NCBI RefSeq assembly: GCF_039543145.1
Contig: NZ_BAABJE010000018.1
Location: 5,123-37,122 of the forward strand
Direction of reading: 5' to 3'
DNA length: 32,000 nt
From: Lysobacter hankyongensis
GTDB lineage: Bacteria > Pseudomonadota > Gammaproteobacteria > Xanthomonadales > Xanthomonadaceae
The position numbers were made by a program, and so were the translations under genes. Under the pieces are notes generated by a model, which saw only the letters and a list, made by a program, of their open reading frames with translations, searched no databases and was not told the DNA's origin. Each line of letters begins with the position of its first letter. Positions within the stretch are counted from its first letter, which is position 1. Below are positions 12,439 to 15,400 of this stretch, piece by piece.

Positions 12439-15400
12439 CGCCCGCTCCCATACCAGCGTTCGTTCATCGCACGGCGGATGTCCGCCATGATCCTGGCGTC
12501 GTCGGCAGGGGTGAGACCGTAGACGGTGTGTCCCGCGTCGCCCCAGATGCCGCTTCGCTGCTGTCCCATCGCACCCATGAAGGAACGATCGACCGTACTC
12601 GGATCGATCGCGTAGCCGGGTGGGTGCGTATGCCCCGACCAGCGGCCGTATCGGCCCGCCACCAGATCTTTGTACATGCCTTCCGACACCGTGATTTCGC
12701 GTCCCACGCCGCGGACGATGAGCCGCCGGGAACCGATCGTAAACATGTTGTACTCGTCGCCGGTGACGCGCCCGATCGCGCGCAGGTCGGACATCGAGAC
12801 CGCGCGTTTGGGCACGACCGCGGTCGAACCGGGCGTCGGCAGCCGGCCGTGCATCGCCGCCTGCCGGGGATTGAGCGACGAGGTCGGCAGCAGCGATCCC
12901 GAACCGCTCGGCGTGCTTTCCGACGCGGCGATCCGGACGCCGCCGATGGAACGCGCGGCCTGGGATTCGGCGGCCTGCAGCCCTGCGGAGCCGGGGCGGA
13001 ACATCGCCCGCGACGCCGACAGGCCGCGCTGCGCGGCGCCCGCCTCGATCGCCGCCATCCGCCGCCCCACCGCCTCCACGCCGCGGCGCACGACCTGCCC
13101 GCCGGACGTTCTGGCGACGCTGCCCGCCGCGCTGGCGACCGTGCGCGCGGCCGTCGAGGCGCCGGAGCGGATCGCCGCGGGCACCACCGCGCGCGTCGCC
13201 GCGGTCGCGGCACGCCCGGCCGCGCCGATCGCCGCGGCGCCCGCGGCGGTGCCGGCGAACGCGGCCGCGCCGCCGATCGCCGCGCCCACCGCGGCGCCGG
13301 TGACCGCGCCCGAACCGGCTTCGCGCAGGATCGCGCGGCCGGAGAATTCCTGATTGCCGAGGCCCAGCGCGCGGCTGTTGACCGTCTGCCGGGTGACTTC
13401 GCCCGCCGCGCCCGAGGCCGCACCGGCCACCGCGCCGGACACGGCGCCCACCGCGACGCCGGTCGCCACCGTCGCCGCCGTGCCGGTCAGGCCCACGCTG
13501 GCGACCGCGCCGGCGATGACCGGCCCCGCGACGCCCGCCGTCGCCACCGTGACCACCGCGCCAACCACGACCACCGCGGCGACGATCGCCACGGTGCGCC
13601 AACTGGGCGTTTCCCACAGGCCGGTCGGGTCGCTCGATCCGATCGGGCGATTGCCCGAATACGCGTAGAGATTCTGGCCGTCGGCGGCGCCCGCGGGATC
13701 GGGCGCGGTCCATCGGCACAGCCACGGCGCGTAGTAGCGCGCGCCGTGGTAGTACAGCCCGGTCTCGGTATCGCGTTCCTTGCCGGTGAAGCGGTAGCGC
13801 TTGGGCAATACCCGCCGCAGCGTGCTCACCGACTGCAGCGCGGTGGTGCCGAACGGGTGGTATTCCTCGTAGGAATGGATCTGCGCGTGCTCGTCGAGTT
13901 CGAGCACCGCGGTGCCCAGCGCATTGCCGAACTGGTAGCAGGTCAGCGATGCCGGACCGGTGTCGGCGCCGGCGGTGCGGCGTTCGATCGTCGCGATCCG
14001 GGTCTGGCCGTCGAGCACGTGCAGGGTCTCGCGCGCGACCCGCAGCGATGCGTCGGCGCGGCGATGTTCGATGCGTTCCCAGCGACCGACGTAGATCCGG
14101 TCCTCGGTGCTGCCGTCCGCGTGCTCGACGAACTTGCGGACACGGTTGCCCTCGCCGTCGTAGCCGTACCAGACCTTGTCGCCGGCGTTGTTGCGGACGC
14201 GGATGAGGCGGTTGTCCTCGTCCCAGTCGAGGCCGCCCAGATGCGGCATCGACAGGGTGTTGCCGTGGACGTCGTAGACGAAGGTTTCGGGCGGCGCGGC
14301 GCCGACCGTCGAGGATTCGAGCCGGTTGCTGGCGGCGGCGTAGGCCAGCGTGCGGGTCCAGGCGTTGATGAAGGCGCCGCGGCCGGCGTGATGCTCGATC
14401 CGGACGAGATTGCCCGAGCGGTCGTATTCGAACGATTGCCGATAGCGCTGCAGCGCATCGCCGTCGGTCTTGTGCGGCAGCATCATGCGCGGCGCGTCGG
14501 ACCAGTCGGGCGGGGTGTTGGCGGCGGCGTGTTCGCGGCCGGTGGCGCTGGCGAGGCGGTAGATGGCGTCGTAGGCGAAACTGCCGCCCGGGTCCACCGC
14601 GACATTGTTGAAATAGTGGGTCGGCAGCGCGCCGTCGACGATCGCGGTGACGTTGCCGACCGGGTCGTAGGTGTAAGCGAGCTGCTGCAGCACGGCGCCG
14701 TCGGCCAGGCGGCGGGTGCGGATCGATGCGACGCGATCGGTGTCGGCGTCGTAGGCGTAGTCGGTCTCGACGCCGTTGCCGTAGCGGATGAAATTGCGCT
14801 GGCCCTTGGCGTCGTAGTCGATGTCCTCGACGAACGCCACGGGGGCGCCGCCCGCGGGCGCGACCGCCACGGTCTCGACCAGATTGGTCTCGTTGTAAGC
14901 GTAGGTCTCGACGCTGCCGTCGGGCGCGGTCAGCGCGGTCAGACGATTCAGCGCGTCGTGGACGGTCAGCGTGGTCTGCGCACCCGCGGCGAGTGCGGGC
15001 GCGGGCAGCGCGCTCCAGTCGGGCACCAGGCGCGGATCGGCGAGGAAGCGCCGGCGGGTTTCCAGGACATTGCCCTTGAAATCGTAGCGCGGCGTGGCGA
15101 CCGTACCGGCGCCGTCGAACACTTCCAGCAGCCGTCCGTTGGCGTTGACGGCGCTGTGCGCCGCGGTGCCGTAACGGTGCCGCTCGCGCAGGAATTCGGC
15201 GCCGCCGAACGGACGGACGCGGAATTCGCTGGGCCGCTGCATCGCGTCGTAGACGATGCGGATGCGGTTGTTCTTCGCATCGCCGGCCAGCATTATTTTT
15301 CCCAGCGCATCCGACAGCCGCCAGCGGCGTCCGCCGTCGGCGGTGGTCGAGATCGCGCGCGTGCCGACCATGTCGTAGGCGTGGCGCACGATCGCGATGC

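Follow-up and report, generated by a model that had tools for sequence, protein, structure and literature searches.

What are some hundred residues of membrane-like sequence doing at the start of a Tc toxin cargo? Tc toxins are the textbook anti-eukaryotic injection devices, in development as programmable protein-delivery systems, and their cargos are regarded as soluble enzymes for which immunity is not needed. The locus that raises the question lies in a 32,000-nucleotide stretch of the Lysobacter hankyongensis genome (contig NZ_BAABJE010000018.1, positions 5,123 to 37,122; hereafter the window) and holds a fused TcB-TcC (BC) gene and a TcA gene. Judged from the sequence, it belongs to a distinct clade of BC-fusion Tc toxins with two unexpected features: a membrane-like leader at the start of the cargo that is maintained by selection, and warheads that are exchanged behind it together with immunity genes. 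The reading that we favour, tentatively and at slightly less than an even chance, is that the leader is a cargo-borne, pre-toxin module for membrane insertion or entry, and is not itself the effector.

The BC gene (12435..20102; all window features given here with coordinates lie on the minus strand) encodes 2555 amino acids with the complete Pfam domain set of a Tc toxin BC fusion: SpvB (5e-79), TcdB_toxin_midN (3e-28), TcdB_toxin_midC (2e-20), RHS_repeat (6e-22) and FG-GAP_3 (2e-9). Its codon-position GC of 0.71/0.54/0.88 (GC at third positions, GC3, 0.88) is typical of a gene, so the open reading frame (ORF) is taken to be a real one; the window as a whole is about 71% GC, and the gene also aligns by blastn to its closest relative (locus L014). 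The peptides with which a preliminary description of this DNA had been concerned are likewise read from the minus strand, at 13212-13595; the plus-strand frame there gives an unrelated Arg-rich translation, which we rejected as an artefact. The proposal made then, that they are encapsulated Tc cargo, is supported: they lie in a BC fusion with a TcA gene next to it, both identified by Pfam. The Rhs/TcC aspartyl autoprotease cleavage motif, DPTGL (13617..13631; amino acids 2158-2162), was read from the sequence; cleavage predicted from this motif would release a cargo, or hypervariable region (HVR), of 393 residues (amino acids 2163-2555; first base 13616). The DPxG[LMQ]-W junction is the same in homologues, whose cargos are 364-393 residues long.

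The cargo (38.8 kDa) opens with a polar cap, WETPSWR (HVR 1-7; 13596..13616); its W6 and R7 do not vary in alignment A1, and its W1 hardly does. These seven residues intervene between DPTGL and TVAIV; a hydrophobic run had earlier been placed directly after the cleavage motif. Next comes a charge-free hydrophobic segment (HVR 8-72; 13401..13595), recognised from the Kyte-Doolittle (KD) and Hessa scales, conservation and dN/dS, and made up of a transmembrane (TM)-like helix (8-27), an invariant G31-P32, and a first glycine zipper, G53xxxG57xxxG61xxxG65xxxG69. It is followed by a polar loop (HVR 73-100; 13317..13400; GE.TRQTVNS.ALGLG.E.FSG..I), with E73, T75 and Q77 invariant and R76 and I96 nearly invariant, and by a second Gly/Ala segment (HVR 101-134; 13215..13316), again charge-free, in whose zipper, G103xxxG107xxxG111xxxG115-G116, the residues G107, G111 and G115 are invariant. 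Behind these lies an Arg/Ala-rich, predicted helical region (HVR 135-235; 12912..13214), defined by its charge, by its spacing of one Arg every ~7-8 residues, and by an AlphaFold2 (AF2) model that gives helices with a pLDDT above 80 only for residues ~190-222. The order of parts is therefore a W..WR cap, a charge-free stretch, a polar loop, a second zipper and an arginine-striped helical tract. Sequence comparison suggests that together they form a pre-toxin module of about 135-235 residues, of which the zipper region is the N-terminal part; some 100 residues of membrane-like glycine-zipper sequence do open the cargo, as had been described. The cargo's net charge, put at about +18 by hand count, computes to the same value (37 Arg, 2 Lys, 9 Asp, 12 Glu; pI 11.5). 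The whole HVR is thus basic, as had been stated, but the charge lies behind the zippers (+13 in the tract HVR 136-280) and not within them; the positive charge that had been taken as a published requirement for Tc cargos is disputed as a strict one (PMC7861908).

How membrane-like is this leader? HVR 8-72 runs for 65 residues without any charge and reaches a KD peak of 2.70 (19-residue window), as compared with 2.45 for an MFS transporter and 2.57 for UbiA, membrane proteins of the window whose longest charge-free runs are 30 and 26 residues, respectively. The summed Hessa scale falls below 0 only for windows that start at HVR residues 8-11; beyond its first ~20 residues the segment is Gly/Ala/Thr-rich and moderately hydrophobic, and zipper 1 (HVR 53-72) stays under the KD threshold of 1.6. 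The runs of (G/A)xxx(G/A) on which the preliminary description had leaned prove statistically empty as an argument: the loose motif [GAS]xxx[GAS] is not above composition-preserving shuffles (P 0.45-0.87), as is expected by chance where 55-80% of residues are small. The strict motif GxxxGxxxG is enriched in the same kind of test (5 observed vs 0.83 expected, P = 0.004), Gly-Gly spacings peak at 4 and 8, and in 12 homologues G53, G57, G61, G69, G107, G111 and G115, though not G65, show little or no variation. A transmembrane glycine zipper, reportedly in the sense of Kim et al. in 2005, is the motif (G,A,S)xxxGxxxG or GxxxGxxx(G,S,T) within a helix that spans a membrane; the module has the motif, in a helix that may do so. 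The AF2 model of the module is all-helical with a mean pLDDT of 59.6; we set it aside as too unreliable for fold search or topology.

Homologues of the cargo are of two kinds. The first shares the N-terminal ~235 residues after DPxG[LMQ] and continues into unrelated C-terminal domains (DUF4329, metallopeptidase-like DUF6782, Mrr-like in P0023, deaminase-like, or unknown); the second shares the C-terminal ~155 residues and has no module. In a 12-sequence alignment of the module the invariant positions include W6, R7, A14-G19 (AVVVVG), T23-G28 (TVATAG), G31-P32, G42, G61, E73, T75, Q77, G107, G111 and G115. A profile of the module found 37 proteins among 1.84 billion representatives. All seven long matches (1,847 residues or more) include TcdB mid-domains, five of them together with SpvB; no PAAR, VgrG or LXG context was seen. 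A genome scan found module carriers in Ramlibacter, Flavobacterium procerum, a Thermoanaerobaculia metagenome-assembled genome and Sediminibacterium: each encodes a BC fusion of 2400-2590 residues, then a giant TcA-like ORF. Besides the window, TcA lies downstream in 7/7 complete or near-complete loci (L001, L003-L007, L014), among them the frameshift-ridden L001. In L003 (3798-11560 of a 1.56-Mb metagenome contig) the BC protein is called as two genes, of 2065 and 519 residues, with the break just upstream of the Rhs C-terminal core; the break may be genuine, or it may reflect a frameshift or an error of assembly. The CRISPR genes cas1/cas2 stand immediately upstream.

Another key observation is the degree to which the module is conserved. 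Across Betaproteobacteria, Bacteroidota and Acidobacteriota its residues 1-75 are 64-79% identical to the window, except in the weakest profile match (P0052, 51%), whereas elsewhere in the same loci identity is 33-57% in the Rhs core, 28-51% in HVR 135-235 and 16-24% in the tails; shuffled controls give 33-35%. Relative to L014, the module has a dN/dS of 0.012 (dN 0.018, dS about 1.5); the ratio is 0.15-0.19 over the remainder of BC and 0.054 for the last 150 Rhs-core residues. Synonymous sites are saturated while dN is low, and the constraint is therefore on the protein and not on the DNA; it is roughly ten times that on the cocoon. No other part of the BC protein is conserved as strongly, and the charge-free run also keeps its length, at 60-69 residues in 22/23 homologues. 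The survey of homologous HVRs that the preliminary description had called for thus turns up a conserved module and not a variable low-complexity linker.

What lies behind the module behaves quite differently. The C-terminal toxin domain (HVR 237-393; 12438..12908) represents an unannotated family, with invariant motifs TGDEY, SGHTHPP, DR and Q.RS..W.D.G, that also occurs without the module (P0004-6, 8, 11, 12, 14, 15). It is modelled by AF2 with a pLDDT of 93.4 and has no Pfam, NCBIfam or PDB sequence match; a fold search returned weak matches to AMSH/JAMM and deaminase-fold proteins (E ~0.1; TM-score to AMSH 0.33). The invariant residues E52, H93xH95 and D107 (alignment A3) have a spacing that we take to be JAMM-like (E...HxH(x7)SxxD), as a lead only; the Ser of the JAMM motif is not conserved. 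A 132-residue gene (12040..12438; GC3 0.86) follows, its ATG overlapping the BC stop codon (ATGA), an arrangement that suggests translational coupling; its product has no hydrophobic segment and represents an immunity-like family without annotation. A small gene of the same family stands directly after the toxin-domain homologue in 5/5 cases (P0004, P0005, P0008, P0012, P0014), four of them matched directly by the 132-residue protein (E 1e-16 to 4e-6) and the fifth through those, and 0/6 small control genes behind BC proteins with other tails are relatives. We regard this gene as a candidate for the cognate immunity protein of the toxin domain.

The alignment to L014 is instructive in this respect. 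Similarity by blastn (~78%) extends over 20030..13174, breaks off, and resumes at 11891..2352 through TcA, so that the swapped toxin/immunity cassette (11892..13173) comprises the HVR from residue ~149 onward plus the small gene. The breakpoint at about 13174 falls within the Arg/Ala-rich region, and 13212-13595 is wholly on the conserved side. In L005, from Flavobacterium procerum, the BC tail has a deaminase-like signature read by eye (CAE..PCxxC; CAE...PACPTC) and is followed by a gene for a SUKH-3 immunity protein (11135-11572; E 9e-26, above the curated cut-off); two more small ORFs stand between that gene and TcA. A small gene separates BC from TcA in 5/7 complete loci (window, L005, L006, L007, L014) and also in L001; in L003 and L004 there is no small gene between the two. 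This is the arrangement of a polymorphic toxin system, with a conserved trafficking part, a variable C-terminus and a putative immunity gene directly behind it, the last two being exchanged as a cassette. We also noted, at L002 9454-11185, an orphan Rhs-tip ORF (P0018) that consists of the last ~40 core residues, the module and a toxin, with an overlapping 144-residue gene. Its neighbours are an integrase of the phage type and several reverse transcriptases of group II introns, and it could represent a toxin/immunity cassette that is mobile or has been displaced.

The module is constant while the C-terminal domain varies together with its immunity gene, and on these grounds we take the module to be a carrier or pre-toxin part; the ionophoric effector that had been offered as its possible main role is, by the same pattern, unlikely. 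According to published structures, the C-terminus of a Tc cargo is the first part to go into the channel (bioRxiv 10.1101/590430). We envisage the following sequence of events: the cargo would be cleaved at DPTGL and kept unfolded in the Rhs cocoon; since it would leave through TcA C-terminus first, the toxin domain would lead and the hydrophobic module would trail, emerging last; the module would then insert in the target membrane by its TM helix and glycine zippers, and either carry the toxin domain across a further membrane or hold it at the membrane in which the module sits. The further membrane would be the inner one of a diderm bacterium, the outer one having been breached by TcA. There are precedents in type VI secretion (T6SS): the N-terminal glycine zipper of Tde1, ahead of its DNase, is needed for membrane permeabilisation and entry into the cytoplasm of the prey (PMC10240207), and the TM domains of T6SS Rhs effectors have been proposed to serve inner-membrane crossing (PMC8765631). 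It is these precedents, those of membrane-active cargos in Rhs/YD shells (below), the immunity cassettes and the cytoplasm-type warheads that, taken together, lead us to favour a module for insertion or entry.

Several points weigh against this interpretation. The TM propensity of the module is judged from simple scales, the stricter of which are passed by no more than its first ~20 hydrophobic residues, and its AF2 model is of low confidence. Canonical Tc toxins deliver straight into the cytosol, so an entry domain would be unnecessary. It is not obvious how a trailing module would translocate a domain that has already been released. Immunity is not universal, given the two loci (L003, L004) without a small gene, and an immunity gene is in any case no proof of a bacterial target. 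Finally, strong conservation together with restriction to BC fusions fits co-adaptation with the cocoon or channel equally well.

A more specific proposal, which we consider possible but unlikely, is that BC-immunity-TcA loci are antimicrobial, most probably antibacterial, Tc machines in which the module takes the toxin across the inner membrane. TcA would breach the outer envelope layer, the module would carry an exchangeable, cytoplasm-acting toxin inward, and the cassette-encoded immunity protein would protect siblings. The carriers of such loci are free-living soil and freshwater bacteria from several phyla.

Of the rival explanations, the one that survives best, though we rate it as improbable, takes up the last objection: the module would be an element for handling the cargo in the cocoon or channel, where the hydrophobic N-terminus would bind to the likewise hydrophobic cocoon wall close to the protease site and serve to hold the cargo unfolded, fix its C-terminus-first polarity or plug the channel after release, with no role at the target membrane. 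In Photorhabdus luminescens the cargo N-terminus remains at the protease site and the cocoon interior is hydrophobic (10.1101/590430), and the first 27 residues of the C-terminal toxin fragment of Tse5 (Tse5-CT) are ordered inside their shell (PMC10684867); every long module carrier is a BC fusion, and the last 150 Rhs-core residues, which adjoin the module, are constrained too, as their dN/dS given above attests. Yet among Rhs C-terminal cores ~50-65% identical to that of the window, the module is present in 1/58 and a polar, module-free cargo N-terminus in 57/58, which argues that this type of cocoon does not need a module; the count is approximate, as the cleavage-motif regular expression at times took an upstream DPAG, and all of these sequences are short fragments, which may or may not come from Tc loci. 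Weaker relatives of the module (E 1e-10 to 1e-4) also occur outside the Tc context, in non-Tc YD-repeat proteins (in P0044, about 170 residues from the cleavage site) and in proteins without Rhs repeats (P0041, P0048), and a 65-residue charge-free stretch with two conserved zippers exceeds what a docking peptide would need.

Still less probable, to our minds, is a membrane anchor for a eukaryotic target (protist, fungus or invertebrate), which would insert post-translationally after delivery to the host cytosol and would localise the toxin without translocating it. All characterised Tc toxins hit eukaryotic cells (PMC7861908), a TM-like helix followed by an Arg-rich amphipathic tract resembles membrane-targeting signals, and two loci lack an immunity gene. 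A tether, however, would hinder cargos that resemble nucleic-acid enzymes, such as the deaminase-like tail of L005 with its SUKH-3 partner and the Mrr-like tail of P0023; swappable cassettes with cytoplasmic immunity proteins are a hallmark of interbacterial polymorphic toxins; and the carriers are environmental bacteria, not known pathogens.

We place little weight on the idea that the module is the toxic principle itself, a pore-former or ionophore like Tse5-CT, TelE or EsxX, with an accessory C-terminus. Depolarising glycine-zipper toxins are known, one of them Rhs-encapsulated (PMC10684867; PMC12744356; for the C-terminal domain of the Bacillus teneurin-like protein, PMC13018210), the toxicity of the Tde1 zipper is independent of its DNase (PMC10240207), and distant relatives of the module give sub-threshold Gly-zipper and class IIc bacteriocin matches. 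But the immunity gene tracks the C-terminal domain and not the module, the complete loci examined contain no second small gene that is conserved along with the module, and a constant module with exchanged tails is the pattern of a delivery part, not of a warhead. Nor was the window cargo placed in the Tse5-CT class of Rhs-encapsulated pore-formers, in which the hydrophobic C-terminus is the toxin and has an immunity protein of its own: a separately folding domain (pLDDT 93) stands behind the module, and it is this domain that the immunity gene tracks.

The last rival, that the module is a high-GC Ala/Gly/Val linker or a DNA homology tract for cassette recombination, can draw on the 80% GC of the segment in its 71% GC window, the chance level of the loose small-xxx-small motif and the recombination breakpoint just downstream, but is effectively refuted, since the same residues are kept in loci of 34% GC (Flavobacterium procerum) and 43% GC (Sediminibacterium), identity is ~2x the shuffle baseline, dN is 0.018 where dS is saturated at about 1.5, and the length of the charge-free run is conserved.

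Does the module belong to a known family? The cargo matches no Pfam or NCBIfam family, permissive thresholds included. PT-TG (PF14449) has no match in the window cargo, nor in 11/12 module sequences, at E <= 10, none in 26 further relatives at E <= 0.01 and none in ten that were rescanned at E <= 5. The twelfth sequence is P0024, whose second repeat scores 15 bits (E 0.011-0.024) against a gathering cut-off of 23.5 bits; the module could not be assigned to PT-TG, as the gathering score was not reached. The window's polar loop resembles this second repeat. P0022 and P0024 (L003 9878-11560) have two copies of a loop-plus-zipper unit, 'GE.TRQ...G..I....G..TG', which hints at a repeat origin of the module and a distant link to PT-TG. 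The families PF13436, PF13441, PF13488 and PF05433 have no match in the window. Sub-threshold Gly-zipper matches were seen in P0042, P0046 and P0053, and only distant relatives match, likewise below threshold, the models Gly-zipper_OmpA, Gly-zipper_YMGG and class IIc bacteriocin (E 0.004-0.6); over the 12 sequences and 26 relatives we dismissed the labels PT-TG, Gly-zipper, holin and Romo1 as sub-threshold noise. A PDB sequence search with the module returned only weak matches, to residues ~82-170 of paramyxovirus F0 (1g5g, 3maw; E 0.003-0.004), matched to HVR 99-188, and to a designed helical repeat protein (E 0.04); these matches probably reflect Gly/Ala composition. This part of F0 includes the fusion peptide, rich in Gly and Ala, as well as the beginning of heptad repeat A; fusion peptides are themselves membrane-inserting segments.

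As regards the remainder of the locus, the true start of BC is possibly M16, near 20057; blastn similarity to L014 starts at 20030. An oxidoreductase gene abuts BC in the window. In L014, a 172-residue gene (500-1018; …NGSGWVLADGRAVP…DLRGVYLRG…) without a window equivalent is found directly upstream of BC, and by eye it looked like a domain of the phage tail-collar type. The TcA gene (2097..11954) was identified by Pfam, with TcA_TcB_BD (1e-106), ABC_toxin_N (2e-40) and a neuraminidase-like domain (2e-26). Its ORF is open to 12089 (3330 residues), but as the ORF start overlaps the small 132-residue gene, the likely start is M46 at 11954, with AGGAGAG ahead of it. At about 3,285-3,330 residues this TcA is of unusual length, and the part in front of ABC_toxin_N takes up ~1,700 of them; residues 144-191 in that part give a weak CarboxypepD_reg-like (transthyretin-like) match, and the TcAs of L003, L004, L006 and L007 open with similar-looking '...TD..G.Y.I.Y' segments. 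These N-termini suggest a distinct TcA clade with different receptor-binding modules. HtpG comes after TcA. The other flanks are housekeeping genes (oxidoreductases, the MFS transporter, TonB-dependent receptors, UbiA), from which we conclude that the Tc genes form a small island in a Gram-negative genome.

We found no Tc or ABC toxin with immunity genes or with a hydrophobic or TM-like cargo in the literature, of which our coverage is incomplete, and in the families and papers searched there appears to be no description of a Tc BC-A locus that combines a glycine-zipper pre-toxin module with toxin/immunity cassettes. The largest Tc survey reported no immunity genes in 1,608 loci, but had set BC fusions aside (PMC7861908); the present loci indicate that surveys without such fusions have missed a class of Tc loci. 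Our analysis adds a new putative pre-toxin family and a new candidate toxin/immunity pair. Should the leader prove to serve entry or insertion, it would offer a testable answer to how an encapsulated toxin crosses a second membrane, would extend Rhs-cocoon chaperoning of membrane-active cargo from Tse5 to Tc, and would provide a portable module for Tc-based delivery to new targets. Were the antibacterial proposal true, this would be the first antibacterial branch of Tc toxins and the first Tc cargo with a domain for translocation across a second membrane.

In comparison with known systems, the window locus shares with TcdB2-TccC3 of P. luminescens and YenB/YenC of Yersinia entomophaga the SpvB domain, beta-propeller, TcdB mid-domains and Rhs repeats, as well as the DPxGL motif, a basic cargo that stays below 40 kDa and, next to BC, a TcA that has a TcB-binding domain. 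It differs from canonical Tc toxins in the fusion of B with C, in a gene order with BC ahead of A, in the conserved 65-residue hydrophobic glycine-zipper module with which its cargo opens, in the immunity-type gene between BC and A, and in the ~3,300-residue length of its TcA.

The nearest likenesses of the module lie outside the Tc family. Tde1, a T6SS DNase effector of Agrobacterium, also has GxxxG repeats N-terminal to an enzymatic toxin with an immunity protein; its delivery is by T6SS with the Tap1 adaptor, however, and its zipper is much shorter and not encapsulated, so that the likeness is a functional analogy only. In polymorphic toxins PT-TG, too, sits between the trafficking part and the toxin, and its conserved loop has Gly-rich sequence on either side; it is poorly characterised, with a predicted role as a linker or in interaction with the envelope (PMC13483458). 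Gly-zipper_OmpA (PF13436) and Gly-zipper_YMGG (PF13441) have the same GxxxGxxxG spacing in small-residue-rich, moderately hydrophobic sequence, and the entry domains of CdiA-CT can be likened to the module by position and composition (N-terminal to the toxin, hydrophobic, GxxxG).

Closer in architecture are the Rhs effectors of T6SS with prePAAR and TM domains (RhsA, Rhs1), which combine an Rhs cocoon, an encapsulated toxin and TM helices that are proposed to insert in the recipient inner membrane and translocate the toxin (PMC8765631). Their TM helices are at the protein N-terminus, outside the cocoon, and need Eag chaperones, whereas in the window the membrane-like segment is part of the cleaved cargo inside the cocoon, which would itself serve as chaperone. 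Tse5-CT of Pseudomonas aeruginosa and the hydrophobic C-terminal domain of the Bacillus teneurin-like protein (BiTLP) are precedents for a hydrophobic polypeptide kept soluble in an Rhs/YD shell: both proteins undergo C-terminal autoproteolysis and have membrane-inserting C-termini (PMC10684867; PMC13018210), and that of BiTLP permeabilises Escherichia coli from the periplasm (PMC13018210). Since encapsulated membrane-active cargos are thus known in other Rhs/YD shells, the novelty of the window locus is specific to Tc toxins. In Tse5 (CT of 16 kDa) and BiTLP the hydrophobic C-terminus is the entire toxin and is delivered by T6SS or displayed at the surface; in the window it is a constant leader for exchangeable, enzyme-like domains, with TcA as the delivery device.

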